Shown here: piece by piece, positions 2,670 to 63,125 of the stretch | Position numbering within the stretch: the stretch's first letter is position 1 | Layout of the letters: every line of letters starts with the position of its first letter | Origin: Owenia fusiformis | Lineage: Eukaryota | Assembly: GCA_903813345.2 (NCBI GenBank) | Contig: CAIIXF020000001.1 | Location: forward strand, 6,882,001 to 6,946,000 | Direction of reading: 5' to 3' | Length of the DNA: 64,000 nt | The notes under the pieces: model-generated | What the model was told of the DNA's origin: nothing | Seen by the model: the letters and a program-made list of their open reading frames with translations, nothing else | Database searches by the model: none | Program-made: the position numbers and the translations under genes

Positions 2670-3384
2670 TTTGACCTTCATTACAGCGACATCTAATGTG
2701 ACATTGACCAACAATGAAGGGGGACCTTAATAATATGGTTCTTCATGATTTAGCGGACTCGTAATATTTGCACATAGACATTCCATGATAGCATTGCCCT
2801 TGGCGATGAGTTAAACCTGGACTTTGACGGGGGGGGGGGGTGGGGTTAAACTCTTCCCACACTCGCTCGAACTGGTAAAAACGTCCGACAAAATAGGGTC
2901 CAGTTTTGAAAAGGGACATTATTTTGAAAAATCTTGACCGAATTTTTCAAGTTCTTAAGCCAGGGTGGGTGCATAGGGGGAGGGGTCATAATCGTATGCA
3001 ACTGCCACACATTCGAAACACAATATGTTAACAAAGTTAAAACAAACAGATTGTTTGAGATCACGAATCTCAAACGATTTATTTGTTTTAAACACATTTA
3101 AAACAATTCCATGTTGATGTTAATTGTTCTGGTGTCCTTTCAAAACGTAAAGTATTAGTAATTGTATGACGTGGATTTACGACTCAAATTTATAATATGA
3201 CGTCATGATTTAATTCACAAGTTCTGAGGATACAATACGCGATTTGTTAACGTTTCCTTGGAGACATAAAGCCTTGTTTTCATTTGAATAAAACAAGACA
3301 ACTGTTTGTTTTGACGATCGTGGAAAATCATCTGGAACCTAAAATCACGGACCTGAAGATAAAATCGACATTATCCTTGATATA

Positions 3385-4572
3385 ATGAATACTGAAAAAG
3401 AAAAGGAAGAGCCCAGTTTTAAACGACAGAGGTTAGAGGCGAATTCGGACGACGAAAGCGAATTTGATGCCCCTGTACGGACGACAAAAAACGAATCTGG
3501 AATACATGTACATGAAGGCGTAGAACATGTCCAACTTATTTCAAATGGACTTGAAGATGCTTCTTATGATATTAAAAAAACTGACACAAATTCTGCTAGT
3601 TTTAGAGCAAATCAGTCTATTAAACCATCCAGGAGAGTTCAAGTTGATAGTTCCAAAATCATGCCAAAGCCAATGCCACCGCCTCAAGCTGTATTACTAA
3701 AGAAAGATACTCCAAAGTTGACTTTGAATAATACACAAACAGTCCATTCTGTATCAAATATTAAAGAATTGTTCCCACAATTTAAAGGTTCAGCGAATAG
3801 ACGAGTGTTTGTTGTAAAACCAATCACCTCGGGTGGTAACAGGAACCCAATCTTGAATAGCAAAGAAGAAACAAAGAATAGAAGTATTGTTTTAAAGACC
3901 GTGTCTACATCGGTGCCAAACGCATTTTCTGTGAAGACCCCGATAGTATTTACGAACGCACTGACAACGTTACCCAGTGTTGTTGCCCATACTGCGGGCA
4001 TTCCTACCGGACCATTCGCATTGATATCAAAAGACCGCTATACATGTGCATTTCCCAATTCTTCAGATTTCCCTACTCACATACCCGACGCGTCTTCAAT
4101 ACAATGTGGACTTCAAAATACGTTCAACATGACGAGCTTCCTCCCCATAAAAGATGTAGATGATATTAAAGTGATAACTAACACACTACATGTAACTGAG
4201 ATGAACAAAAACGAGAGAGATAAACAAAAATGGGTCAATGATAAATCTCGGGAAAACAAGGACATTGCAGAAACTAATATAATTGTAAACGTTTTGTTAG
4301 AACAATGGGAAAGATACCTGTCAATGCCGATGGAAGATATGAAAAAGATAGCATTGCAACAGGCGCGATCACTCAAATACACCGATACTTTCATTGAGCT
4401 CATTGAAGAAACTATGGACGATATCGAAATTTTATCCAAACAATATTGTCTCTATGATATCTCGGTAGATGATATTAATATTCATGTATTCGATACCTTT
4501 GTGGAAGATCGTGGGAATACTATAGCTACTGACGTCAACAAACAAGAAGTTTCCAGTAAAAAATCAATATAA
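3385..4572 (+). CDS. Intronless 395-aa ORF of unknown function (basic N-terminal patch, S/T/P-rich middle, acidic helical C-terminus)
   Basis: 1188-nt ORF in AT-rich DNA where long ORFs are otherwise absent and not explained by a repeat. ATG start, KRQRL NLS-like motif. No family recognised. Confidence 0.6.
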   Translation: MNTEKEKEEPSFKRQRLEANSDDESEFDAPVRTTKNESGIHVHEGVEHVQLISNGLEDASYDIKKTDTNSASFRANQSIKPSRRVQVDSSKIMPKPMPPPQAVLLKKDTPKLTLNNTQTVHSVSNIKELFPQFKGSANRRVFVVKPITSGGNRNPILNSKEETKNRSIVLKTVSTSVPNAFSVKTPIVFTNALTTLPSVVAHTAGIPTGPFALISKDRYTCAFPNSSDFPTHIPDASSIQCGLQNTFNMTSFLPIKDVDDIKVITNTLHVTEMNKNERDKQKWVNDKSRENKDIAETNIIVNVLLEQWERYLSMPMEDMKKIALQQARSLKYTDTFIELIEETMDDIEILSKQYCLYDISVDDINIHVFDTFVEDRGNTIATDVNKQEVSSKKSI

Positions 4573-8183: not shown

Positions 8184-9032
8184 CACCCTATGCAGACAGA
8201 GCCTGTGGGAAATATTGGGTGCGGAGCAAATGAGCGGAGGGTGCGGAGCTAACGGTTATTTTTGAATTTAAATTTGGGATATTTCTGAAACTAAGCCGTT
8301 TTGGGACTTCAAATATACCAAGATATGTGTATTTGACACCAAATATCAATACAATTGTGAAAATAGTAGCGCAAATCATTCTATAGCGACGCAGTGTGCC
8401 TTAAACCTTTCCCAGACCTATATATTTTGAAATTGTCCTTTTAATACTGAGTCCCCAGCATTCATAAAAAATGGTGTTCAAGGTGCACTATCTATACAAA
8501 TTATTTTTGCATCTTGGAAGCCAGGCAGTATCTGTGTGATTTTATAAAAATTCGGAAATGTTCTTCAGATATGAGCCCCTCTAAATATTGGGTGCGGAGC
8601 AGCTCCATAAACGTAGCTCCGCACCCAATATTTAGAGGGGCTCATATCTGAAGAACATTTCCGAATTTTTATAAAATCACACAGATACTGCCTGGCTTCC
8701 AAGATGCAAAAATAATTTGCATGGGTAGTGTATCTTGAACACCATTTTTTATGAATGCTGGGGACGCAGTATTAAAAGGATAGTCTCAAAATATATAGGT
8801 CTGGGAAATGTTTAAGGCATACTGCGTCGCTATAAAATGAATTGCACTACTATTTTCACAATTTTATTGATATTTGGTGTCAAATACACATATCTTGGTA
8901 TATTTGAAGTCCCAAAACGGCTTAGTTTCAGAAATATCCCAATTTTAAATTCAAAAATGACCGTTAGCTCCGCACCCTCCGCTCATTTGCGCCGCACCCA
9001 ATATTTCCCACAGGCTCTGTCTGCATAGGGTG
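8184..9032. mobile_element. 849-bp foldback, copy 2 (inverted relative to copy 1), 5-bp TSD ATAAT
   Basis: Nearly identical to the reverse complement of 5627-6475; ATAAT on both flanks. Confidence 0.9.
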
Positions 9033-11042
9033 ATAATGCTATTATACAATCATAGCACTTATATAGGGTGGGATAATAAATATATATATAATATGCCTAA
9101 CATTTACCACGTATCCAACATATTTTGTAATCATCCGATCCTATTTTCAGGCACAATTTCATTCATAATACACAAGGCGACACAAGGTCATGAACATTCA
9201 TTTTATATTAGATAAATGAGTTGTATGGTAACTGAACTGCACCGGAGAACGGAGGTATATGAAAGCATCCTTCCACGTCAAACAGTCAAAAGGAAGGAAC
9301 TGGCTCGAAGCTAGAGCCTAATGACCAGAAAATATTGTCTGAGAAAATAAGGTTTCAAAGTCGAAAGTTTTTAAGCAGCTTAGTGCCAATTAGATAGAAT
9401 GAAAGATGAACGTGTCTATTCCCAGTCAGACCCACACATTCTCACTACCTAAGTCGAGATTATCTCCCCGCTAATAAAAAATAGATTGGGATTTGCCGTC
9501 GAAGATCATGATAAATGTAATTAAATCTAGAAGTTATTCATGACACACCAGTTTCTTTCTCTCGACGAATGATCGAGTGAATAGTTGTTAAAAAGCCAGG
9601 ATCTGATTTGTATGACTGATACGTCATTTTTACGTTTCGCTTTTTCCGGACTTGGCAGTTCTGATAAGATCGGCTACTTCCGGAGATATATCAACCGCAT
9701 CTCGATAAGTTAAGTAAGTTCGAATTCCGTGCGTCATCCATCGAAGTTTAATTGATTCTTCGTAGTCCTAAGATATGATTTGAATCATTTTAAGCTGATG
9801 TTTATGTTTATGATGTTTTATTCTAGCCTATTTCAATGTATATTTGTGTTACTGTAACAACCAATTTATTGTCAATCAGCGACATAATATGCGGCCAGCC
9901 ACTCTTAAATTAAAGGTGCAACAATTAGAGCAGGGTGGGGGGGGGCATTCAACGATCATCGACCAGTGTCAAAATATATTTAAGTTTGGATATTTCATCA
10001 AGACTAACAAATATTTTCATTATCTACAAAGAAACCCCCTGGTTGAACATTATTTCAGCTGATATTCCTCTTGAAACGTGGTGAATCTTAAAAATCTATG
10101 AGTGGGACTCCCTTTATAGAAGCTTTGAACTGAATTTACACTTCTTTATGCTGAAATTGATAGTTTATCCATACATTTTAAGAAAATAGGTATGTCAAAG
10201 AAGATGTTAAGCCAAATATTGACCTGATAACTCAGAAAAAATAAAAAATTTCAAATGTTCTCTCTATAGTCCTTGTTGCCCCTTTAATAACTTCCCTTCA
10301 TAATCGGTCAGCTCATCTCACATGACTTTGTAAGAACAACAGACTGCAAATTCTGGCGGGTATTAATGAAATAGCAATTGTATTTATTTTTACCTTATAT
10401 ACTGCCAAAGAAGCCGTCTACTATATTACCTTACGGAGTCCTCGCTGTTATCTTCTTGTGGGGCGCCCCGGACGTAACGATTGTCGATGTCGATATATAT
10501 GTAGAGTACTTCATGTATTGTAATGTTGATAGTTACTTTTAATTCTAATTAGTTCTAACTAGGTTTCATCTGTGGTCCTAATTATCTTATTTCTAATCAT
10601 CTCATTTCTAGTTGTCTCATTTCTACCCAGCTCATCTCATCTCTGCATTTTGCCTGTTTACTCTCAATGCAACTTTTCTCAACTGAACTTATGTGCACTT
10701 TGTTTCTGTGTTTTTGACCTCTATTGATTAGCCTTACTAATTATAAGCCTATTTGAATTCATAAAAACATTTTGATTAACTATTCACAACAACTTACACA
10801 ATTTTATATCACATATACCCACTAGTATTTTTTATATATTAATTGTTGGTTGTACAAAAATGAATTAACCAAAGCAGACCAACAAACAAAACATGGCGAT
10901 AGACAGGATTCCGGATAATAAAGATGATTACAAAAATGACATTTTAGTTATTAACCATTTCAATATACCAACTAACATTAAAATAAAAAAATTGTTAACA
11001 CTGAAAATACATTAGAACAAGAAATCATTGTTCTAGAAGTGA

Positions 11043-11336
11043 TACTAGAGAGCTTTCGATAAGTTTTCAGCCAAAACTATACTGCACCTTTTACTTTTAA
11101 ATGACGTAAACACCACTGGGGAGGAAGGTTTCTCAAAGACCAGGAAGTACATTTCAGTAATCATATTTTGAAACCGGAACTCACGAACTACATACTTGCC
11201 AAATATGTTGTGATTTGAAGGATGTAAGCACCCTATCTTCGTTTCCAGAGTTCCTCCCCAGTGCTATACCTGACTTGTACAAGTACAAGTTTGCGTATAC
11301 GTATTCCAAATAACTTATATCGAAATCTCTCTAGTA
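11043..11336. mobile_element. MITE family with TAGAGAG(A/C)TTTCG-type TIR; related copies at ~44283-44575 and from 63941
   Basis: tactagagagctttcga ... tcgaaatctctctagta; internal atcatattttgaaaccggaact and acatacttgccaaatat shared with ~44460-44500. Confidence 0.6.
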
Positions 11337-14052
11337 ATGTTTTCTAGACCCCAAAATATCTAGGCTTTCAAAAAGTTTTCGTTAGGTTAAATTTGCATTA
11401 ATCTCCATGTTCTTTAGGCTGCCTTTAACTCATGTTTAACTACTTCTTTATGATATTTTCCACTTTGATACATCTCTGGATGATATTAATAACAACTGGC
11501 TATCATGACCATGGGATATATATTGAATATATTGCTGATTAATTCTTGGATAATGTATCATGTGCTTCGATAATTTTCAACTTCTTAATAAAATATGTTT
11601 GCAACCAGCTCTCAAAGGGGATTATTTGATGTTTCATGCTCATAAAACAGAATACATTTTATTATGTCCATGTGATTTGTATCCTCCAACACACTGCTTG
11701 AATTAACGTTGCTGATAGTGATAAGTTGTTGATGGATACTTTGTTGGAAGCTTCGCCAGAAAGTGCCTTAGGGGTATAACCTTTTAAAGGACAGACAACG
11801 ACAACATCAGACGAAATGCTGTTATTCTTGTGGTGAATTTAGGTTTTTCTGTCGAATATTTTGTATCCTCTAAACAGTAATATTTCAGCTATGTACCAGT
11901 ACGATTCCAATGTCTATTTTGAGAAATGAAACTAATCCAATGTAATATGTAAATGATTGTTTTATAAATTCTTAATTATATCTAGTTTCTTAGTAAATTG
12001 AATGTGTTGAGCATGTGTTGGAGAATACAAATCATATGGACATAATAAAACGTGTTCTTATCATGAGTATGTAATATCAAGCAAATCCCCTTTGCCAAGA
12101 GCTGGTTTCAAACATTTAATTAATAATTTGGAAATTATAGGAGGACGTGATACATTTTATTTTATGTTGTCTGAGTTTGTCAAAAAATCATCGTTATAAA
12201 GCTGTTTTATAGAATTAATAAGCAATATATTCAGTATCGCATGGTCATGGATAGCCAGTTGTGTTAACATTAAAATAGTACACAATAAATGCCGTTGATA
12301 TTAATACACATGGCACAGGCTTTGGTAGAATAACAGAATTTAATATATATTAAAATATATTTGAAAATATATTTTATATTTGAAAATATTAATCATCGTA
12401 AATGTGCCCTTATAAATATGGTAGACACCCTGTACGTGATAAAGAATTATACGTTGGTTAAACAGCATTAATAAGTGATTAGGCACCGTTGCCTCACAAT
12501 AAGAAATTAATAAACGAGACTACACTTTTACGAGAACGATTCATCAATGTGACAACGATTATACTTTATAAATGGTCTTCTGATTTGAATATTTATAATT
12601 TGGACTTAGTATGCATCATTAGATCAATGAGTACAATATGCACCGGTATTTTAATACGCTGGTGAGTTATAGCTATACGCTCCCCAGCTTCTAAACCCAA
12701 TTGTGTTTTGTTCCCAGTTAATCCCTAAAGTGATAATCACGTCTCCCGTTTCCAAAGTTCCAACCCATGCCATGCATTGAATCTACGTCGTTGCATTGGG
12801 GTGAATAATAGATGTTACTCCAAGGATCCAAGCAATCCAGAAAGGACCTGTTTGGCAAAAATTGCGAACTAAACTTCCAAACTCAGCATACCTATACGGC
12901 AAAACCCATCTATATTAATGTATATGAGTGCACCATTGATCCTACCGTAAACACTTACACGCAAACCAAATTATTATTGACAAAGGTACAAATATGGGGA
13001 TTATCCCAATTTACTGTGCTTGTTTGATCAAGAATGTAATATTAGAAATGTATAAAATTATGTAAAATGATTGGAGAAAATAAATCGCAATAAAAAAATT
13101 AAAAAAAATATTGACAAACGTATTCCAAAAAGAGGGTACACTTTTGTGTCACCCTGTACGTTGTGAATTGTTTTTCTGTTTTAATGTAATGATTTGCTAC
13201 GCCCCAGAATTGTCCTCCTTTTGAAAAGTCAAGGGTTGCCATTTCTGATCGATCAGAACGTCATGAAAGTCACAATTGGTAAGTTTAAATTCCAGTATCA
13301 TATTAACTATAGGTTATGATGTTTAAATCAGAATTGGTAAGCTAAAAATCCAAATCATTTATTAAAGCAAGTTCCTCAGGCTTGTGACTGAGCATTGGTG
13401 GGTTTGACGTTTTAACCCATGGAAACGCTTCCTTTCCTAATCCCTGATTTATTTCATTTGGCCCTTGAACTCTATATTCAAGTCCATGAACACTTCAGTA
13501 GACCAACTTGTGTATTATTTTATAGTTTACATTTTTGATTTGTTTTCTATATTTATAGTTAGCATTTTTTATTTTGTGCATTTTTCATTATTCTTATCTA
13601 TACAATCTATTCAGTATTTTTGATTGTTAAAAAATCTTATTTGTATTGACGGACACTAATGAATTGAGCTCAAGCAATTTCTTTGGTAAACATGTTCCGT
13701 GCGTTACATCTCGCACGCATACTCGCTGACCAGTATGATTTTCAATCAAGATCATGCCTCGCATGTTATCGCATCGTGTTATTTTTATGATGATAGTCAT
13801 TGACTGATATTAATACTAGGACACCACACACCGTCATTGGCCGACATTCAATGTCGGATAAATAACGTCACTGGGGGAGGATATAATTGATGGAATAATT
13901 TTAAATATTCATCGGATTGCATCGGACCTCAGCTACCTTATTTAAAGCAATTCTGCAAGTCCTCGGCCATTAAGCTGTAAGATACCATCAAGAGGATCGC
14001 CAGGAAATATATAAAAATGCTATTAACTAAACCGTTATTTCTTTCAGTGACA

Positions 14053-14206
14053 ATGGTAAAACGTCAACATTTGATAAACATAGTGTTTTACATGGTAGCA
14101 AACATGCTGGTGCAATCCAGTCTGGGACATTCTCATTGTGATAAGAGATGTGAAAATCAAGAAGTTTCTGCATTACGGTCAACCTGGCGAGACCTGGGGA
14201 GTCAAG
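14053..14206 (+). CDS. Candidate secreted precursor gene, coding exon 1 (signal peptide + CxxxC)
   Basis: tttctttcAG acceptor at 14046-47, acaATGg start, donor G|GTAAAT (phase 1). MVKRQHLINIVFYMVANMLVQSSLGHSHCDKRCENQEVSALRSTWRDLGSQ. Confidence 0.55.
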
Positions 14207-14777
14207 GTAAATGAAACATTCACTATTCAATTTTATTTGAATTTATATTCCTAATATTGTTACATTGCAACTACGGGCTCGTGGTACTTTGGCATACAGG
14301 CAATACAATTGATTAAATGGCTGGTTTTACAAATGGTCGGACTCATATACATTATTAATAAAGACTGTATAGAACCAATCTAAATGAAAATATACATAGT
14401 ACTATTTAACAAAAATCAGAACAATTTTCGTATGCTGATCTAGGATGAATTCGAATAAAATAAAGTACATCCTAGCTATCGTGGAAAACAGCAGATCAAA
14501 TTTAAAATCTTTCACACTTTTGCAAAAAAAGTCAAATTGACAATCGGAGAAGTGTATGCAATTAAGTTTGCAATTAACGTCTCATACGGCTAGAGCATCG
14601 CCTTATTTCTTTTCAAAATACCTTGAGAAGTACCAGAGTTCCATCATTTATGCGCAAACATCTTCCTATTTCCCATTTTGGGAAGGACCGTTGTACATTT
14701 TAGAGAAGATGAGAAAGTATGAAGTTTTAGTACTCGGAACACAAGAAATGTGGACATTTTTGGCCCGCTTATATTAA

Positions 14778-16210
14778 CACGCCTAACCATCGACAAGGTA
14801 CAGTGACAAAATATACCGTAGTACACTTTTGATGTGCGATGTCACTATTTAACCGATTTGAAGCAAAGACAATGATGTAGGTTTGATATAGGTTTTAAAA
14901 AAAGAATCTGAGGAATGCATTAAGGATTTCATGTTTGATTTTTTGTGTATTCGTTTAGGAAGACACTTAACTTTCTAATAATGTTAAAAGATTTTCGAAC
15001 AGTGCTCGATTATTTCGTTGTAAATCTACCCATATCATTGGTCGGTTGGAAAATGTTGTGTTTTTACACATTTACTTTGATAATTTCCTCCCCTGTCGTC
15101 TAAGAGTGTCGACGATTTTTATGAGAATATGTTTCTTTAAACAGCACAATATTAAGGTCTGTTGAAGATTTAATAAGCATTAACATTTTGGCTATAATTT
15201 AAAAAATCCTAAGTGTATGTTGTCAACTGAACTTACTAAATTCTCAGTTAACCCTAATGCAGACAACGTATTGTTCATAACACTAACAGACAGGGGGGTC
15301 GGATGCATTTAAAATTGAAACAGAACAATTATATAATTACTTCAATTTGATTGAACTATTGAAACTTTCCAGATATATCATAAACGGGATTTTAAAACTC
15401 ATATCCAATAAGCTAGTATAGATGAGTAGATCTATCTTTCAATGTAACTAACAAAACGTAAAGTACAGACGCCAAATAATCAAACAGGCTGGAAGGAGAC
15501 TCCGTGGCAGTACTAGTCTTCAACATATTCTATTCCGAGACACTGGATGGGAGTTTGGGCTGGAAGCTAACACCAAATGGGCACAAATTAACCACCGCCA
15601 CTACTTTCATGAAATGAAAAAGCAAAAAGGATACTTGAAAATGTTCGTTAAAGATCACGTGTTACTCATAAAAACCTTAATGATTTTTGAAATGAAATCA
15701 TTACATTGTTTAATATTACGCATATCTCATGAATTTCAATTACAGGAACAACGTACATTCGAGTTGACAACGCACATTTCTGATTTTTTTAAATTACAAT
15801 AAATACTTGAATAGTTTTTAATCGCCACCCGTCCTTAATTGTGTAGTATAGAAAACATATTCTCATAAAAATAATCGACAGTCTTAGGCAACAGGGGAAA
15901 AAATGATCAAAGGAAATGTGAAAAACCCAACATTTTACAAGCGATCAATTTTCGTGGGTAGATTGACTACGAAAAACATCGAGCACTGTTAGAAAATCTT
16001 TTAACATTATTAGAAAGTTAAATGTCCGCCTAAACGGATGCACACGAAATTAAACATGAACTCTTTCAAGTATTCCCAAGATTAATTTTTTAAAACCTAC
16101 ATCACACCTGCAGCATTGTCTTTGCTTCAAATCGGTTAAATAGTGACATCGTACATCAAAAGTGTACTACGGTATATTTTGTCACTGTACCTTGTCGATG
16201 GTTAGGCGTG
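14778..16210. mobile_element. 1.43-kb non-autonomous DNA transposon with CACGCCTAACC termini, ~350-bp inverted arms and 5-bp TSD ATTAA
   Basis: Outer ~95 bp almost perfectly inverted, inner arms diverged; ATTAA on both flanks. Confidence 0.85.
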
Positions 16211-16919
16211 ATTAATGTGGTTGAGAAACTGAGTTCTGAAATATTTTTGAGCTAACGCACCTATTCAGTACTCACCCTGTGACTGAAGGTCAGAACGTCA
16301 AATAACTAAAGAATGCAGCTATAATTTTCTAAACGGGCACAACGTACTAGCTGATTATTTTCATCTAAAACATATTTAAAGACGTTACAAATATTTTCCT
16401 TTGGTAAATGTGATTTTTCTGAGCTCAGTATCACCCTATGTTGACTGTGTTATACGAAAACAAGCGTTGTGGCTATCATATGTGCACTGTCACTAAACGG
16501 TCATTTTTAAATTTGAAATTTGAATTTGAAAATGGGAAACATTAATCGGAAATGTGCTACCTCTAAACAATCGGTGTAGCTATCTGTCTAGTGACGGATC
16601 TCTCTCAAAAACAATTTATATCGATATGTCATCTCGATCACCAATACTGAACGAAGGCTGTAAATGGTGTATTAAAGCGGCAATTTCAAATTATTTGCTT
16701 TGGAGAAAGAATAAATGCGTCCCTTTTATTAGTTATCCAAGATACAAATGGGTGAATATAATTGAGTACCCAACGCGTCTTAGTTTATGAACTGTCGCAA
16801 ATTCAATTTCAAAAATGACCACACCGTGCGTACATGATATCCGCATTTTGTTTTCGTATATAGCACACTCCGTATATTGTGAGTATATATCTGATATCGT
16901 TTTTGGAATCACAGTACGG

Positions 16920-18064
16920 ATATTTATAGGATATCCTATGATTTTGAGGAATACCATTTTTATATACGAGTTGATATTGATATCTGCACGAGAGAGCGAA
17001 GCGAACGAGTGCATATATCAATATCACCGAGTAGATGATATTCTGAAAAATCATAGGATGTTCTTATTAGTAGCGCACTAGATGATTATCATTGAAAATT
17101 ATAGTTCAATTTGGCCGGAAATCAACAAGGGTAGTATATCATCGCGATATCCTCCACATTGGTTCGAGAAACGAACGGGTGCATTTATAGGATATTCTAT
17201 GATTTTGAGGAATATGATTTTTATCTACAGGGTGATATTGATATCTGCACGAGAGAGCGAAGCGAACGAGTGCATATATCAATATCACCGAGTAGATGAT
17301 ATTCTGAAAAATCATAGGATATTCTTATTAGTAGTGCACTAAATGTATAGTGTTACGCGGTAAACACGATACAAAAATATGTCATATTCCGCAACGAATA
17401 TGGCATATTCACTTGCGGTGTATGACAGATTCACCTGCGGTATATAGCATACACACTAACCAATGAGAACGTGATACGGAAGTACGTGATTGTCAATTGA
17501 ATCGATTGAACGACCAAGTAAAACGCTGTAGATTATTATAATGATTACTGAATCAACAGTTCTGTGTATCGAATATATTAACTTAGCAGAATTATCAGTC
17601 ACCAATCTCGCGTAATAAACTTACTCAATCAATCCAGGATTCATATATTAGTACTCGACGCACTAACTATATTGGTAATCCAGCGTAGTTTTACATTTAG
17701 AGTCGACTCTTGCAACCAATCAAATCAAGGCTTTTTGTATCACGTTTTCACCTGCGGTATATGTCATATTCACCTGCGGTGTATGGCATATTCCGCAAGT
17801 GAGTATGACATATTCCGCAGGTGAGTATCGGGTATTCACTGAAATCAATGTATCGCATATTCACTGCGGAATATCGCATACTCACCTGCGGAATATGCCA
17901 TATACCGCAGGTGAGTATGGCATATTCACCCGTATCACAAATACCGCACAACCATGAATGTATGCCATATACCGCGTAACATATAGTATCATTGAAAATT
18001 ATAGTTCACTTTGGCCGGAAATCAATAAGTGGAGTATATCATCGCGATATCCTCCACATTGGTT
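16920..18064. repeat. Tandem duplication of a ~245-bp module with a hairpin centred on GAGAGCGAAGCGAACGAG; second copy interrupted by an insertion
   Basis: 16920-17085 matches 17183-17345; 17087-17164 matches 17987-18064. Confidence 0.75.
17351..17981. mobile_element. TGT...ACA-ended non-autonomous element (Ginger2/TDD-like), 5-bp TSD TATAG
   Basis: tgttacgcggta ... taccgcgtaaca TIR; TATAG on both sides; ~21-bp subterminal repeats (tatgccatattccgcaggtgag); absent from the sister copy of the duplication. Confidence 0.7.
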
Positions 18065-18124
18065 TCTTCCCGGAGTATAACGGTGGCGATATCCTCCGGT
18101 TATTCATTTTGCCAATAGTTATCA

Positions 18125-19271
18125 AACGAGCATGTAGGTTATCGAAAACAATTTCAAACGATTCTAATTTGAATTATGAATATTTTCTGATCATGAACAT
18201 GAGTGTATCTTTTAGATCCATTCATTATCTTCAAGAAAAGTATATATATAATGATAATTTAGTGAATCAGACCTAAGTGATATTGAAGAGGCAATGGACC
18301 AATCAACATACTTTTTCAAAAATGTTGACCTAATTTTCACCAAATATGCAACCTTTTATTATATTGTTGAATGCATAATTAGAATGTGCTTTGAGCCATG
18401 TTCGATTTCCTAAAAGGAAAAGTTGATTGCTCCATGGACTTTAAACATACTGAATTTGGATGACCAAAATGAACTGAAACCAATGGATAGCATGATATTT
18501 TTCAATGGAGAAATAACATGGGGAACACTTATCTTAAAGCAATGAAGTGTTTCTTTCAAGAACTATTTGATACATCAAAATAGAATAGTAATGCATTAAA
18601 CATTCTAAAAAATGATTGCATTTTTGGTGAAAATGGGGTCAACATCTTCGAAAACGCGTGTTGATTGCTAGTTAAATATCCCCGAGTTTGTTTGACTTCA
18701 TTATTACTGTATATAATTTTCTTTGAGATAATGAATTGATCTTAAAGATAAACCTGTCTTCATTGTCAGAAAATAGTCATAATCGTGGCGATATACTTTG
18801 TATTTTATGTGATGAAAACAAGGTTGAAAATGAGACACGTTTTTTATTTCAATGAACTAGATATCATGATAAAAGATTAAAATTCTTTCAGAATCTTGAC
18901 CTAAATAATTTAGAAGAAAGTGAAAAAATGAAACTTCTTTTCAATGAACACACCTGTAAGATAGTTAAATATATCAAAGAAGCATTTATTAAAAGAAGGG
19001 AATATATTTATAATCAATGACTTTCTCTTATATATACTTACAAAGCATTACTGCTGAAATTCGATTTTTATAATTTGTAAAAAGTGGTTGATAAGCCCAA
19101 GGTGGGCTGGGTAAATTATTATATTACACTGTATTACTGATATATATTGTATGTAAGACCGACCACTATAATATGAAATAAACTAAACTAAACTAAACTT
19201 TACTAAACTAAACTAAACTAACATAATCCAAGATATAACCTTCTGAAATTGTTTGCTATACCCTACGTGCT
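18125..19271. mobile_element. Old, diverged foldback element interrupted by a LINE tail
   Basis: 18125-18350 is an imperfect reverse complement of 18610-18784 plus 19222-19271. Confidence 0.55.
18785..19221 (+). mobile_element. 5'-truncated non-LTR retrotransposon (RTEX-like) 3' end with (ACTAA)n tail and TSD CATAATC
   Basis: Translates ILCILCDENKVENETRFLFQ*TRYHDKR...KIVKYIKEAFIKRR, a decayed C-terminal CCHC motif (CxxC...ExExHFLFxC); microsatellite tail; cataatc at 18778 and 19222. Confidence 0.75.
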
Positions 19272-21131
19272 CCTTTATTTTCCAATGTTATGCATTTAGT
19301 AAACCAAGTTTAGGACAATCTCCTTTCGATCGTATGTTCGGCAAAAGGACCGAGGCGTTTACTCCTGCTTAACACCCTTGTTCATTTCCCATTCCACTAC
19401 CATCCACTCCTACGTATACACGTTGGAGAAATAGATTATGGGGTGGATTGGAGTGGAAGCAAGAACTTGACGATGCAAGATTGACGTATACTTTTTTGGA
19501 ATGACACCATGGCGTAGAATAATGGAAATATTACAACGCATGCGCGTAAATCGACATTTCATGGTCCAAAGATTTCAATGGAGAGCAGTCTTCATCAAAA
19601 TTTAAAATCTTAATAATTTTTTAGCAAATCATTTATTTTCTTTGGATTCAACGGATCCTTGTTACACCCAACGAAGTGTTCGTTTTGATATATAAATCAG
19701 CAAAATCCATCCATAGATCTTTCGGCCTTTTAATGATTTAATTTTCGGAATATTTTGCTTAAATCCCCCATTGGCTGCCATTATAAACTTTGAAAAAACT
19801 CAAATCCTCATCATTTCATATCATTCGTTAAGTGATCTAAACAACTCCAATCTCGCTAAGGATTCAACGGATTCTAAGAGATCAAAGCTAATACAATATG
19901 TTGACAACCCCCGTTTCACCATTTGCCGCATAATCTTTCCATTATTCTATACGCCATGCAATAGTACAGGAAACTGTTCCAGGGTTTGAAAAATGTATAT
20001 ATTTTTTTAAACCACTCTTTTCCTTATTTTCTTCAAATTGATAAAGAATGTGTTCTATTTCAAAACGTTTTAAACAACTAATAGAAATGAGTGTATATCT
20101 TTAACTATATTTAAGCCAATTTCTATCCTTGACTGGAACGTAAATATCTAATTATAGCTTCCCTACCAGAACGTAAAGATCCTTTTTTACACATAAACGA
20201 CGGAAACATAACATTGGAAGCGAATTAGTAGCACACTTAGATCTGTTTAACTTGACAGACACTCACTAATTGGTATTTCAATTAAATTACTCAATGCACC
20301 TTGACGTCACCTCAAGGGAGAAGATAAGCAGAGATACTGTTCCAACTGTAAGACTTATCTAAATGATTGATTTATAAACCCAACGAACGCATATTTTACC
20401 AGTCGACTTTCACCATTGTGAGTTGGCGTTAAAGTATTCTAATCCAACGTGAACGTAAATGGCATTTTGAAAATTTTTAATCTAACTAGCAATTATTACA
20501 CATCCACTCGAAGTTTCGAACGAAACCTTAATCCATCCTCTTTTAACGAGATTTATGTTGGATTAAGGCAGTTCGAGACGTATCCTTTGATACACTTGGG
20601 TATCTCTCCCCGCAAGACGTGCACCACTCCCGCATAAGTAACCCCGACTCATCCATCACCTGTGAGCCTATTAGATAATTCTCATCATCTTTATCGTTAT
20701 TATCCTGGATTATACACCAGTACTTACTTAGCAAGTAATTATAACGAGGGGGATATCGATACTTATTACGTTTAATTGACTTGTGGTCGTCATATTGACT
20801 CTCCAGATCGCTACTTATGTATTATTAAGGAAATCATAAAATACATCCGGATTTTTACGCTACCCTAGTTTCGTAGTGTCCTAGTACTTTGTATAGCTTT
20901 GTAATATCAACAAGGGGCGCCCTGTTTAACAATGACGTGTTCTCCATTTGTTTATAAACTGCCATTTTCTGAAATCACCTCCTCAAAGCATTTTTACCTT
21001 TTTTTACCTTTTTAGCCATAGACTACAACTCTCAAATCTGGGCTCATCGTTACAAATGCATCTAATGTTTTTTATCATCATGATTTAATTATTGAGTGTC
21101 GTGATCAATTTGTTTTTATCACTATTTGCAG

Positions 21132-21359
21132 ATGTTCCATTTGAAATGTTCGTGCGCAATTTACTACATGAACTACAGCAATTCAAAGAACTTGAAATGG
21201 CAAGAACTGCTCTACTGGCATTAATAGAAGAGTATAATGACTGTATGAGGACTTGTGAAGTTCCGCACAGTAAACGAAATATTATGTCATCACCGAAATC
21301 GTTAAAATTGGCCAAGGTTATTGAAATGATTGCAACCAACTACGAGAGAAAGGTTAAAG
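21132..21359 (+). CDS. Candidate secreted precursor gene, coding exon 2
   Basis: tttgcAG acceptor, AAG|GTAAGA donor, open phase 1-1 exon: (D)VPFEMFVRNLLHELQQFKELEMARTALLALIEEYNDCMRTCEVPHSKRNIMSSPKSLKLAKVIEMIATNYERKVK. Confidence 0.6.
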
Positions 21360-21620
21360 GTAAGACACATGACTTGCTTTAATGTCTGATTCTTTTCTTC
21401 ATCATATATCTGTGGAAACAATAAACCGATGAGGTGTTGTTGTTTTGAGGTGTATTAATGATTTGATATTAATCTGATGATTAATATATTGTCATCCCCT
21501 GTCGCCTTGTCTACGTACACTGTCGCCCTTATTTCCCTCACGCGGCACTAACATGGCCTATTGCATAATCTTGTAAAACGGTTATTAAAAATTTATCATC
21601 AATATACATTTTCTTTTCAG

Positions 21621-21649
21621 AGCCACAGACGGTAGGCTTCAGCAAATGA
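21621..21649 (+). CDS. Candidate secreted precursor gene, terminal coding exon
   Basis: Strong ttttcttttcAG acceptor 260 nt after the exon 2 donor; (E)PQTVGFSK*. Confidence 0.5.
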
Positions 21650-23235
21650 CATGCATCCATGTAGCTCCTTATATTGTATGATTCAAGGAGGAAAGTGAAA
21701 CATGACAATGGCTCCTATCACTGCGGACAGGACACTGTTATTCACAATGATGCATCAAATAAACGAACAGCGTTATACGCTGAGATAGAGACTGCACTGG
21801 ACATTGATATTAGAGGCGACTAGAGTAGTTCTATACGACACACATGATCTCAGGCGCATTCATAAGTAGATCCATGACATCGGTACCCTGTATTGACAAT
21901 ATTATACCATTATACAATTAATCAAAGCGTGGACACATTAATTATAATGAAAGTTATTAAAAAGGTTTCATCTTATCTTGTGGGGATGAGAAAGAGGGAA
22001 TCTTCCTCAATAATCAATTAATAAGAATATGTTCTGGATCCTATGTAAATACCTAATAATAAATGGGGTATAAGACTATGTGCTTCGTCCGCTCTCTGTC
22101 CAAGTTACCAACCACCCTTGATCTACATTTCTATCAAAAATATTTTTGATCAAAATTATCCAATAACCCTAACATTTGCCGCCTTTTGCCCCATCAACAA
22201 AACTTCATTTGATAATGCCATAAATTGTAATTAGCTATGTTTCCAGACAGGACTACTTATCGCTTATAAACGTATTGCTTTTTTGAAAGATTTCTTAGCA
22301 TAAGTGAACATAAGTGCCTACAACTTATGACATCATAAATATGGCCTATGTAGCTAAGAAAAGCAATATACTGCCTCACACAGGAAAGTTACAAATTCTA
22401 CCACGTGATACATGCGATTGTGCCTCTGTCTGAATAAATCATTTCTAAGCCAATTTTTCTCACTATATTCAATTTTATATTTTATTTATCTTGCTTTAAG
22501 AACATAAGACCCCTAAAATGTTGCAATTTCAAGTGATTATTAATTGAATACCTTTTATCCAATATTCACGGAAGATGCGCTGAGTGTGCAAAAGACAATA
22601 AACACTTTATTAAAATGGTTATTCAGTATCAATTCTTGATTAAGGCAACGCTTAGAATCCCAATGGACTTTCTATATAAAACTATTTAATAGGATATGTT
22701 GGGAGTATATTAGTAGTATATTTCTTGTTTGTTGGATCAGAAATAAATGCACTTTAAATGCTGAAAATCATTTTATGGATAATGGATCCCAAAGGTTTTA
22801 CTAAAAGGCGTACCGTCATTGGATTTAAAATTAATTCAAAATATAATCACAATCCGAGGTATGTTAATTACAATGTGTTCACCTTACCTCGGTAGGTGTC
22901 TGTTGGAAACTACAATGCTAAGAGTGTCAGGGAGCATTTCAAACTATCAATGAATTATATCAAACAATGATATACTATACTCTAGTATATGTATGGGTAG
23001 TTCCCGATTTCCCCTGAAATAATATACACTGCATCAAAAGTTCACATATATAGGGTTCCAAATATTTGGTTTTTCTTCTTAAAAGAGAGTTTCATCTCGG
23101 TTTACATATATTGAACACTAGGCTCTGGCTCTATGGGTACCTAGCTTTTGGAAAGTGTGGGATAAATTGTTTTTGGTTATGTTAGTACTTCTTTGATGTT
23201 CAAGTTTTAAGCCCTATGCACTAGTAACCTATATA

Positions 23236-24090
23236 CAGGGTGAGCAAAAAAACGTCCATATTTCTTTATTTTGATAGAATGTTTTTGTAATGCATGGGGC
23301 GAAAAGTAAATGCGCCCAATTTTCTATTCTTGGACAGGAGGATTAACAAAGTATTAATCTGGGGTTCATTTTTGGAAGGTCGTAACATACGATTGGTCGC
23401 TAGTCCTGGTTCGTCAAAAAGTACACAATGGTTTTCTTGGAATCGTAAATAACGATCAAACCAAAAACGAACCCCTGAGTCCCGTGCCCTGAGTACTATG
23501 GAACATAAAAAACAGTTATATCGCTTGTGGGCCCAATCGAACACCTTGTTGATCTTCTCTACCACAAACAAGATTTCGGAATCGTTTTCCATGTATGGGC
23601 GGATTTTCTTAATCGCCCCTTTCTTAGTACTGGAGCAGTTTTTATTCATCTTACTACTTATTCGTCGTATGATACCACTGGCGGATCTGGGAGGGGGGGG
23701 GGGCCAAAAATAATTTTGAGCAAAAAAGGCCTTAAAGCCCCAAAAAAGGCGCCTTTTTGGTCATTATTTGGCCTTGTAAGGCCTTATTTTTGAATTTCAG
23801 GCCAAATTTTGAAGAAAATTTCAAAATTGGGGCCCACTTTTCGGTTTTAGGGGCCAAATATTTTTTTATGCGCAAGCGCGGAAGTTGTTTTTTACCTGAA
23901 ATTTGGGCCCCCCCTTGTTTGTTTCCAGATCCGCCCCTGGATACTTTAACATTCCATTTTATGTGGAATTAATATTTCAGAATATGCCGAACACCCCACA
24001 ACATACTTCCCCATCAAAAATATTTTTAAAATATATACATTATTCAAAACACATTGCCAAATAAACAAATGGAAGTTTTTGGTCACCCAG
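23236..24090. mobile_element. Tc1/mariner-like non-autonomous element (TA|CAGGGTG termini), degenerate
   Basis: TA|cagggtgagcaaaaa ... tttttggtcacccag|TA. Confidence 0.5.
23676..23939. mobile_element. CA...TG MITE (GGCGGATCTGG TIR), 5-bp TSD GATAC, nested
   Basis: gatac|cactggcggatctgg ... ccagatccgcccctg|gatac. Confidence 0.8.
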
Positions 24091-26099
24091 TAGATTAGAT
24101 GTTTACGTAATCAACATGCTAAACTGCGTCTAACATGGTTTAGAGAAACGTTTTGCTCTGTTTGTCGAATATTAATGTACAAATAAATGCAGAATTGTAT
24201 GGGAAATCCATACACAAAATAATAAAAAAAATTGTTTAAACTGATTTGCTTTTTGGTTATTTATTACTTCGGTGCATTGAACAAATTGTGTAATCATGCG
24301 TTCACCCCTTAAAGTGTCATGAAACTTACAGACTGAAAATATGGAAAACTCTTCTAAAATTAAAGATGCGAATGAAGTAATCCAATATTAAATATTTAAT
24401 TTGTCATATTAGCAGCATATCAAATACGTTTGCTGAATAACCGTGTGACAGTTGAGAACTACCTAGGGGCTACTACTCCAACTAAATAGACTATGAGTGA
24501 CTTAAGTCAATAAAGACGTGTCATAATCCACCGGTGCTCACTTACATTCCATATAGCAATCATCATTAATCCATTGTACACAGTAATGCTACTTGCTAGT
24601 TACTCAATAAGTTAAAAAACAGAAAATGTGAGAGGTATGTGGAGCTCCACGTGTCCAGGGCTACCCAAGTATTCCGACTCTTGCTAAAGTATTATTCTGA
24701 CTTGACCCAAGTATTCTGGGTTTAGTCATTTTATTAAATAAACTCGATATGTTGTTGATTTAACTTAATTTAATTTTATGTTCCTTCAAGAGAGCTGGAG
24801 ATGACTGTTGAAATTTTGTTAGCGGAACAGCACTTGAATGAGTCTCAGGTTGGTATTAAAATATAAAAATCAGTTCATCAATTCATAATCGAATTTAAAC
24901 AAATTAAGGTTGTGAATGAGAGGAAACTTTTTGTTTTTTCATTTTTTATATAAACTACATGCTACCCGTTGATGAGTGGCAGATCCCGGGGTGTGCGACT
25001 AATGTACCATGCGACACTCCTGAGCAATGCAATATTTAGAGTATATCAATATATTTATTTAGGCTGTGTCTCAACTTCAGGAAAATGGCTCATTTCTGAA
25101 AAATGGGCCATTTGAAAATATCGGCCTCGATTTTAAAAATGGGTCCAAAGTTCCAAAATTGGGTCTAAATTTTCAAAAGGGCAATATTTTAGAGCCAATA
25201 TTTTCCAAGAAAAAATAATTTTGGCAGCATCCTCTATTTTGAATTTTCAGATCTGATGAAATTATTGGAATTGAACTCGAAATGCTTTGGTTGTCAGAAT
25301 AGTTGGCCAAGAGCGAGAACATTGAAACAGGCGCTTCCTCAAATTCTGACTGCTAAAAAGGATAAACTGTTTGACAAATCTCTAAAAATCTTAAAAATCA
25401 TATGGTCAAAAAAAGTAATTACAATGTGTGATACAATGTTAAATATGACTTTAGAGTGTGGGCTTTTTGTACCCATACCAGGATGATGCAGGATCATGGT
25501 ACGGTTCCAGAACACGAATTATTCTCACCCACCGGTCCTGAAACATGAATATCTTCGGCACGTGTTTGGTGTAGTGTAACGGTGGTCAGTAAGCTCACCT
25601 CCATCTTCCTCCAATAATCGAGAGTAATTATTCACTATGAGATCCACATAACAGTCTGTAAGCTTTAGATAGATAGACTGATTTGGAATTCAATAGAATG
25701 AGAGTAGTAGGAAGTTTACAATGATAGTATGATTGTCCAAGATACAATTGCTTTAACTAAATAATTTAACTTGATAAAAAATGTTTTTAAATACAAAAGA
25801 ATCTGGAATCTAAATTTAGCCCCTGACATATTACATGAAGCAGGGTCGAGGCAATAGAGTCGAGTGCAATTCGGACACTTGACGCAAAATAGAGGCGAAG
25901 TGACGCAAAACTACCACTGATCATGACTGATCAGATATCACAATCTAACATAATTCGTAACAATTATGCAGTATGATAGGATGTTGGAGGGTATGAGGAC
26001 TCGTGATGTAAACCACACAAATTCCAATTATATCTTCGTGACATTTGAACTGCCACCTCATGCTATGATATTTATGGAGTGCTTTCTTGTATATCATTA

Positions 26100-33732: not shown

Positions 33733-61853
<28,121 letters not shown>

Positions 61854-62060: not shown

Positions 62061-62114
62061 ACGAGCTAAAATGTCACGGCACTTAGCCATTTCTAACCAT
62101 GCAACATGTATACT

Positions 62115-63125
62115 GTACATTGCTACACATTGCTACACTGTGTCAAGCACCTATACATAGGCTGGAAAGCGGGGTAAACGGGGTACATATCCTTACCTGT
62201 ATACTCTACATTGCTACACTGTGAGGCAGCTTCTACACATACCATGGAGGTGGGGTAAGCGGGGTAAGCGGGGTGCATACCTTTACATGTATACTCTACA
62301 TTGCTACACTGTGAGGCAGCTTCTACACATACCATGGAGGTGGGGTAAGCGGGGTAAGCGGGGTGCATACCTTTACATGTATACTCTACATTGCTACACA
62401 TTGCTACACTGTGTCAAGCACCTATACATAGGCTGGAAAGCGGGGTAAGCGGGGTACATACCTTTACATGTATTCTCTACATTGCTACACTGTGAGGCAG
62501 CTTCTACACATACCATGGAGGTGGGGTAAGCGGGGTAAGCGGGGTAAGCGGGGTGCATACCTTTACATGTATACTCTACATTGCTACACTGTGTCAAGCA
62601 CCTATACATAGGCTGGAAAGCGGGGTAAGCGGGGTACATACCTTTACATGTATTCTCTACATTGCTACACTGTGAGGCAGCTTCTACACATACCATGGAG
62701 GTGGGGTAAGCGGGGTAAGCGGGGTGCATACCTTTACATGTATACTCTACATTGCTACACTGTGTCCAGCACCTATACATAGGCTGGAAAGCGGGGTAAG
62801 CGGGGTACATACCTTTACATGTATTCTCTACATTGCTACACTGTGAGGCAGCTTCTACACATGCCATGGAGGTGGGGTAAGCGGGGTAAGCGGGGTGCAT
62901 ACCTTTACATGTATTCTCTACATTGCTACACTGTGAGACAGCTCCTACACATACCATGGGGTAAGCGGGGTAAGCGGGGTACATACCTTTACATGTTACA
63001 TAGAATATATTAGTTACTACATTGTTTCAAGCTCCTACATGTATACATAAACACTGTACATTGCTACACTGTGTCAGGCACCTATACATAACCTGGGAAG
63101 CGGGATTAACGGGGTACATATCCTT
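62115..63125. repeat. Compound minisatellite (81-bp and 90/99-bp units containing GCGGGGTAA 9-mers) upstream of ALDH4A1
   Basis: Alternating units visible directly and in the ORF translations (YPAYPA..QCSNVE). Confidence 0.9.

Follow-up and report, generated by a model that had tools for sequence, protein, structure and literature searches.

In a 64,000-nucleotide stretch of the Owenia fusiformis genome (contig CAIIXF020000001.1, positions 6,882,001 to 6,946,000 of the forward strand; from here on the window, in whose own numbering all positions are given), three small exons around a long intron form a gene that is real, transcribed and spliced. Its product is very likely a secreted prohormone, and we are highly confident that the gene belongs to a prohormone family of annelids and molluscs that has apparently not been described. 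Judged from sequence, this family is probably homologous to vertebrate FAM237, also known as NPGL, and, by analogy, it is a reasonable candidate for a ligand of the receptor GPR83. As a whole, the reading that we favour, and consider fairly likely, is that of a neurosecretory prohormone, probably representing the spiralian sister family of FAM237A/B, with GPR83 as its likely receptor.

The exons (14053-14206, 21132-21359 and 21621-21649) are separated by GT..AG introns in phase 1, and their joined translation amounts to 136 amino acids, exactly as an earlier note made from the bare DNA sequence had read them. Read evidence was collected from four runs (X1, X9, X13 and X14) over window positions 9000-25000. 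Both junctions that the note had proposed to check (14206/21132 and 21359/21621) were recovered in a single Logan contig of 1159 nt from run X9 (depth 51.7), which maps as the pieces 13937-14204, 21130-21357 and 21619-22284, and the second junction was also spanned by one raw read of X13. The latter run gave thin coverage in the expected orientation across exons 2 and 3 and the 3' untranslated region (UTR), with reads extending beyond the stop to about 22.9 kb, and poly(A)-like hexamers are located at 21758, 21956, 22058, 22433 and further on. X14 showed zero depth over the coding exons, and expression was absent or at trace level in both raw RNA runs (2/2). The pieces from X1 are unspliced, and this run behaves like DNA. 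In the X9 contig exon 1 runs straight into exon 2, and the further exons that the note had considered possible within the 6925-nt intron are absent from that transcript. The exon-2 piece of this contig is 3 bases shorter than the exon in the window, which suggests an allele with an in-frame indel. When the genome was searched with exon 2, with the complete protein and with a divergent relative, only this locus was returned each time, without paralogues, which indicates a single-copy gene.

The start codon was only partly as the note had placed it. The ATG at 14053 is in frame, but there is an earlier in-frame ATG at 14017, 12 codons upstream and within the X9 contig, and this is where the database protein P0001, an uncharacterised and unnamed O. 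fusiformis protein of 148 amino acids, begins (residues are numbered accordingly here). The mature peptide is identical whichever of the two ATGs starts translation. A strong acceptor ends at 14047, just ahead of the second ATG, and is left unspliced in X9, the sole contig seen, while in the loci of three relatives (L007, L009 and L010) an acceptor directly precedes the ATG. Because of these acceptors, a shorter protein form starting at 14053 is possible. Positions 13977-14047 could be a 71-nt intron in the 5' UTR, the removal of which would delete ATG 14017. The features of the gene, all on the forward strand, are as follows.

13937..14016, + strand: 5' UTR, to the limit of the transcript contig (X9 contig piece 13937-14204)
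14017..14206, + strand: coding exon 1, with ATGs 14017 and 14053, signal peptide, Cys41, Cys45 and Trp57, and a phase-1 end within codon Asp64 (translation, X9 contig)
14017..14127, + strand: N-terminal region and predicted signal peptide (hydropathy; best 11-residue window 2.23 at residue 22)
14038..14047, + strand: acceptor-like pyrimidine tract and AG, with a candidate donor at 13977; possible alternative 5'-UTR splice (sequence)
14128..21271, + strand: predicted mature hormone His38-Ser110, 73 amino acids, coding bases 14128-14206 and 21132-21271 (conservation, AlphaFold2)
14207..21131, + strand: intron 1, 6925 nt, GT..AG, phase 1, with many dispersed repeats (X9 contig)
21132..21359, + strand: coding exon 2, with the FxxF helix, the long helix with YxDC, Cys101, Cys105, KR and the start of the propeptide (translation, contig, alignment)
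21272..21277, + strand: Lys111-Arg112, predicted convertase site (Lys invariant, 18/18 aligned sequences)
21360..21620, + strand: intron 2, 261 nt, GT..AG, phase 1, within the propeptide (X9 contig and one X13 read)
21621..21649, + strand: coding exon 3, end of the propeptide and TGA stop at 21647-21649 (translation)
21650..22284, + strand: 3' UTR, at least this far (X9 contig)

Dispersed high-copy repeats lie at 16500-19700, inside intron 1, and at 9000-10600, with X1 contig depths of up to about 50,000, and both also draw RNA reads from elsewhere. A duplicated segment is located near 16920-17080 and 17190-17340.

A phmmer search of 1.84 billion representative proteins gave 14 matches, consisting of P0001 itself, 12 true relatives and P0002 (E-value 2.6e-11), which was discarded as an artefact, being a repetitive coiled coil without cysteines. 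Out of 1150 candidates, a profile search gave 8 matches, of which 5 were new; this brings the total to 17 relatives: Capitella, six named gastropods and unnamed others. The gastropod proteins, all uncharacterised, are from Haliotis (LOC124151488), Gigantopelta (LOC121385686), Aplysia (LOC101851294), Lymnaea, Bulinus and Biomphalaria (LOC106066607). An entry for Capitella teleta (CapteP224782) in a published secretome file has the same sequence as P0004; the file is apparently a SignalP-filtered set (PMC6425005).

In the 18-sequence alignment F67, F70, Y98, C101, C105 and K111 never vary, and 90% or more of the sequences keep C41, C45, E106 and R112. The four cysteines, the tryptophan, the FxxF and YxDC motifs and KR are retained across the 17 relatives, with nothing conserved past KR, and conservation is highest in the C-terminal block C-E-x-x-x-S/T-KR. 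The mean frequency of the top residue (16 of the 18 rows) was 0.24 in the leader, 0.52 over residues 38-110, 0.96 at KR and 0.14 in the tail, which is missing altogether in several relatives. A dibasic KR or KK is present in 18/18 sequences, the mature length is 72-80 residues in all 12 sequences tested, and a hydrophobic stretch precedes the first cysteine in all 16 sequences with an intact N-terminus, weakest in P0005 with its short leader. Since conservation is confined to the stretch between the leader and KR, we infer that the active product is the disulfide-closed three-helix segment of about 73 residues, and that the tail is a propeptide. Among candidate metagenome stretches, 4 out of 61 encode relatives, and in the three loci that cover the position (L007, L009 and L010) a phase-1 intron lies three codons ahead of the invariant Phe, as in Owenia. 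Ahead of the residue that aligns with Ala90, L009 (523-600), L010 (7840-7917) and L008 (432 onward) have an extra intron within the mature region, which neither Owenia nor L007 has.

When supplied with the family alignment, AlphaFold2 predicted helices at residues 40-45, 48-59, 67-79 and 82-105, with a predicted local distance difference test (pLDDT) score of 87-93 across residues 41-100, and a further helix at 118-139 in the propeptide; the prediction from the single sequence was poor (pLDDT 52.6). The conservation across the relatives, with its invariant or almost invariant Cys and KR pattern, and the hydrophobic leader support the secreted, disulfide-closed helical hormone precursor that the note had proposed. 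Its helical tail with RK is present in the model as a helix, but belongs to the unconserved propeptide. The small residues at positions -3 and -1 suggest signal cleavage after Gly37. In 10 of the 16 full-length relatives (P0006-P0008, P0010, P0011 and P0015-P0019, among which are the named Aplysia, Lymnaea, Bulinus and Biomphalaria proteins) a second basic pair is found in the loop after the tryptophan, between helices 1 and 2, and Owenia has none. Cleavage at this internal pair could yield a two-chain hormone joined by two disulfides.

Searches of domain and structure databases gave no family name and no known fold above background, with saposin, globin, helical cytokine, attractin and twin-CX3C proteins among the candidates. 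Pfam returned nothing at cut-off for single exons, the full protein or 13 aligned members, and below cut-off no family for P0001 and three scattered weak matches among the 13 members. Sequence and profile searches of the PDB gave chance matches only (E-value above 0.2), Foldseek gave none at an E-value of 0.001 or lower, and the best VIA-align score (Z 5.9) falls within the background range of helical proteins. No FAM237 chain was listed in these fold searches, which therefore cannot test the FAM237 link, nor was there a GPR83 chain among the best 60 rows. The ESM Atlas had no usable match for exon 2, and for the mature part plus tail it gave sub-threshold leads to neuropeptide S and neuromedin U/S, which are weak (0.76-0.80).

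The earlier note recognised no family; a resemblance to vertebrate FAM237A/B (NPGL/NPGM) does exist. Human FAM237A is composed of a signal peptide, an 80-residue mature protein and a propeptide, and has three helices and one disulfide; its core consists of W17, L24, W28, F39, W40, M43, L46, F58, L61 and F65, and its C-terminal H78, G79 and L80 are followed by a Gly and a dibasic site (10.1101/2022.09.27.509696). In rat NPGM fragments, the first Cys adjoins a Trp, and there is an F-x-x-F-M-x-x-L helix and a D-C eleven residues ahead of the dibasic site (PMC4625114). From these descriptions, rather than from aligned vertebrate sequences, a pattern of 20 conserved positions was composed, divided into three blocks with up to 4 residues of slack and scored with BLOSUM62.

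The Owenia protein scored 44, which was matched by 0 of 5000 full shuffles and by 1 of 5000 shuffles in which Cys and KR were kept fixed. For 11 other sequences, 0-3 full and 0-13 fixed-Cys shuffles out of 5000 did as well (6 of the 18 rows were excluded from this single-sequence test). With 300 shuffles, 17 of the 18 sequences outscored at least 299, the exception being P0009, which lacks exon 1 and was equalled by 179. None of 562 windows from real proteins attained 44, and two attained 33. The family profile, from which P0009 and P0012 were excluded, scored 51.0, against a best value of 19.1 for 4000 column shuffles and 34.5 when Cys and KR were fixed (0/4000 each).

The alignment uses a single register with just two one-residue offsets, and 13 of the 20 positions score above zero. 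FAM237 residues C16, L24, W28, F39, F42, M43 and L46 correspond to C45, L53, W57, F67, F70, V71 and L74 in Owenia, and in the C-terminal part D71 corresponds to D100, C72 to C101, H78 to column 107 and the dibasic site to K111-R112. The matched positions are those most conserved within the annelid-mollusc family: five have a weighted frequency of 1.00, L53, W57, L74, D100 and R112 have 0.83-0.93. Column 107 carries His, in register in the molluscs, at a family weight of 0.66. With the vertebrate cysteines placed from papers, the long-range Cys pair is 56 residues apart in both Owenia and FAM237 (55-63 in the family), and the second Cys lies 10 residues before the first basic residue in both, as in 12/12 family members. 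Seven of the ten FAM237 core positions are identical or hydrophobic across the family (L24, W28, F39, M43, L46, F58 and F65), with Ala at F58 in Owenia, while the columns of W17, W40 and L61 are mostly polar. The overall layout is also that of FAM237A, with a signal peptide, a single mature protein of 70-80 residues, a dibasic site and an unconserved propeptide, as are the three helices with a long C-terminal one, which on both sides are predictions. Over FAM237A and FAM237B together, the mature protein has about 80-88 residues.

FAM237B/NPGM shares these likenesses, and its mammalian form also has two cysteines four apart near the N-terminus (10.1101/2023.05.04.539513; PMC4625114; PMC5768754). 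Its extra Cys comes four residues after the conserved one, whereas that of the annelid-mollusc family comes four before it, so that in the chosen register the two lie on opposite sides and probably do not correspond. Unlike the spiralian proteins, NPGM is amidated.

Several points weigh against the FAM237 relation. The amidation Gly before the dibasic site is reported as absolutely conserved in vertebrates (10.1101/2022.09.27.509696; 10.1101/2023.05.04.539513), whereas the residue ahead of KR is Ser or Thr, never Gly, in 16/16 family sequences, and the peptide can thus not be amidated. The C-terminal end of FAM237A/B is His-Gly-Leu/Met; where FAM237A has the receptor-critical H-G-L, Owenia has V-P-H and the molluscs H-x-F/H, and Gly never occurs at the second of these positions. 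Seven of the 20 positions score below zero, clearly for W17, W40, L61, G79 and L80 and marginally for F65 and G81. The family has two additional conserved cysteines, making four instead of two, and a phase-1 intron that interrupts the coding sequence of the mature part at Asp64; in the mouse knock-outs the deletion of the entire mature part fell within a single exon, which suggests that it is apparently not divided by an intron in the mouse (PMC13538515). No vertebrate FAM237 was returned by the phmmer, profile or Atlas searches. Furthermore, FAM237 was a post hoc candidate, chosen before the test was built for the likeness of the inner cysteines and of the last stretch of the mature segment, the placement of seven of the 20 positions was indirect, by way of the NPGM paralogue and the description of the amidation and dibasic sites, and the shuffles ignore helical periodicity, so that the p-values are optimistic and overstate the case. 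Finally, the pairing of FAM237 with GPR83 is itself still classed as preliminary in the literature (PMC13538515; PMC13494238). Because the defining amidation Gly and H-G-L end are absent, we have not filed the gene as FAM237A or FAM237B.

These points could indicate an independent spiralian hormone or neuropeptide family, in which the likeness to FAM237 would be due to convergence of short amphipathic helices, closure by cysteines and a dibasic site, and the receptor would not be GPR83. Such a family would explain the absent amidation Gly, the extra Cys pair, the mismatched positions, an intron that is not common to the mouse and the lack of vertebrate matches in the searches, and it gains from the post hoc choice of FAM237. 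However, the matched positions are precisely those that the family itself conserves most, in one register, and no shuffle attained the profile score even when Cys and KR were held fixed. We consider convergence unlikely, though it is the most serious alternative to homology with FAM237.

The same genome encodes receptors of the GPR83 type. A degenerate GPR83-motif pattern matched three times in the Owenia genome, each time an intronless frame for a G protein-coupled receptor (GPCR), and not at all in a reversed control. Among the best 120 of 182 matches, their relatives carry the name GPR83 or GPR83-like in molluscs, nemerteans, Artemia, Callorhinchus and Xenopus; orphan GPCR 40 of Platynereis is a relative as well. 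A quick tree was built from 32 rows, and in it the 19 rows of GPR83, three of them from Owenia, split from 13 other Owenia GPCRs with a Shimodaira-Hasegawa-like approximate likelihood ratio test (SH-aLRT) support of 99, and the shark and frog GPR83 fall within the group of the Owenia receptors; the outgroup branches of this tree are long, and verified luqin or tachykinin receptors are missing from the outgroup. The best of the remaining Owenia receptors had an E-value of 1e-58, against 1e-119. The three genes (L004, L005 and L006) share contig C5, where two of them, recent duplicates with short branches, are about 18 Mb apart, and L006 has another GPCR gene (L014) at a distance of about 95 kb. 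GPR83 is described as a family of bilaterian origin that annelids, molluscs, brachiopods and nemerteans possess and phoronids lack (PMC5818035; PMC8557429), and as one of three bilaterian peptide-type receptors whose vertebrate members were orphan in a 2013 survey (PMC5818035). Its vertebrate ligand is disputed, with PEN and FAM237 as contenders (PMC13494238; 10.1101/2022.09.27.509696). The presence of both receptor and candidate ligand in one genome is expected under the favoured reading and does not demonstrate their pairing.

The altered C-terminus and the second disulfide might instead mean that the family is truly homologous to FAM237 and acts on another receptor, GPR83 signalling having been lost or being restricted to some lineages. 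Binding to human GPR83 was reported to require H78, G79, L80 and the amide, non-amidated FAM237A being barely bound (10.1101/2022.09.27.509696), and Owenia has none of these; moreover, five residues follow Cys105, compared with eight after the corresponding Cys of FAM237A. Yet the C-E-x-x-x-S/T-KR block is conserved as one would expect of a receptor-contacting end, the genome keeps three copies of GPR83, and ligand and receptor can co-evolve. In rats, the effect of NPGL on adiposity was found to be independent of amidation (PMC5553934). We regard a true homologue that does not signal through GPR83 as quite improbable.

Our working model is that of a spiralian sister family of FAM237 that has four cysteines, lacks the amide and probably works like it. 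The leader would be removed after Gly37, and the segment would fold into the three predicted helices, closed by a putative Cys45-Cys101 bond, equivalent to the FAM237 disulfide, and by Cys41-Cys105 as a presumed second rung one helical turn further out. A prohormone convertase would cut at Lys111-Arg112 and a carboxypeptidase would trim the end, which would give a non-amidated, free-acid protein of 73 residues for regulated release, with the unconserved tail discarded; the relatives with an internal basic pair may in addition produce the two-chain, disulfide-linked form. By analogy with the vertebrate system, the short C-terminal end past Cys105 would contact GPR83, and the most likely role would be the control of feeding or of fat and energy storage.

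Two further explanations concern the nature of the product. It might be exocrine, as a pheromone or a mucus, tube or defence protein, or it might be a short four-helix cytokine with the tail as the fourth helix. Helical pheromones exist in molluscs, the model contains a helix in the tail, and the raw RNA runs show hardly any expression. On the other hand, the tail is not conserved and is missing in several relatives, whereas the KR site does not vary. The gene evolves slowly and has one copy, Foldseek and VIA-align gave no fold of a cytokine or pheromone, and the weak Atlas matches are to neuropeptide precursors. An exocrine product or cytokine is therefore very improbable. That the exons are not a gene at all, and represent chance exon-like segments or a globin fragment, can practically be dismissed: exon 1 resembles a globin A helix through the superficial look of one helix, which is the sole point in its favour, and this explanation is refuted by the spliced X9 contig and the family alignment with its 17 homologues, besides the conserved intron position and the absence of a globin match in Pfam or the PDB.

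Elsewhere in the window, an open frame of 409 codons at 3343-4572 (+ strand), partly of low complexity and without a Pfam match at cut-off, is probably a large exon of an upstream gene. A 56-nt tandem array of about 121 copies occupies 35084-41911, and a 90-nt array of about 9 copies lies at 62104-62996, where both strands have long open frames. The exons at 53544-59159 (- strand) resemble those of ALDH4A1, a pyrroline-5-carboxylate dehydrogenase.

A literature search, which covered few subscription journals, retrieved no paper for the family motifs and three of the gene identifiers, and none on FAM237 in invertebrates; among the matches listed for FAM237A together with GPR83, all were vertebrate studies or receptor reviews by title. 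FAM237 is described only from fish to mammals in the accessible text of 10.1101/2022.09.27.509696 and 10.1101/2023.05.04.539513. Within the available supplements of the neuropeptide surveys PMC8557429 and PMC5996578 the family motifs matched no family member, and in those of PMC6425005 one was matched only in file 2, apparently the unclassified input set (9 of 14 occurrences). The family thus apparently is not named in the supplements of these three surveys, and no printed description was found.

Even without the link to FAM237, these proteins constitute a conserved spiralian prohormone family. That they represent the missing protostome orthologue of FAM237/NPGL, and at the same time the endogenous ligand of invertebrate GPR83, has in our estimation a slightly better than even chance. 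If true, the FAM237-GPR83 system dates back to the last common bilaterian ancestor, an ancient energy-balance system would join the bilaterian list, and its spiralian form would be four-cysteine, non-amidated and in some molluscs possibly two-chain. It would also provide an evolutionary argument, independent in the vertebrate dispute, for FAM237 over PEN as the true ligand of GPR83. A FAM237-like precursor that occurs alongside GPR83 in annelids and molluscs provides a ligand candidate for the invertebrate receptor, which is relevant to Aplysia, Lymnaea and Platynereis, with their well-studied feeding circuits.

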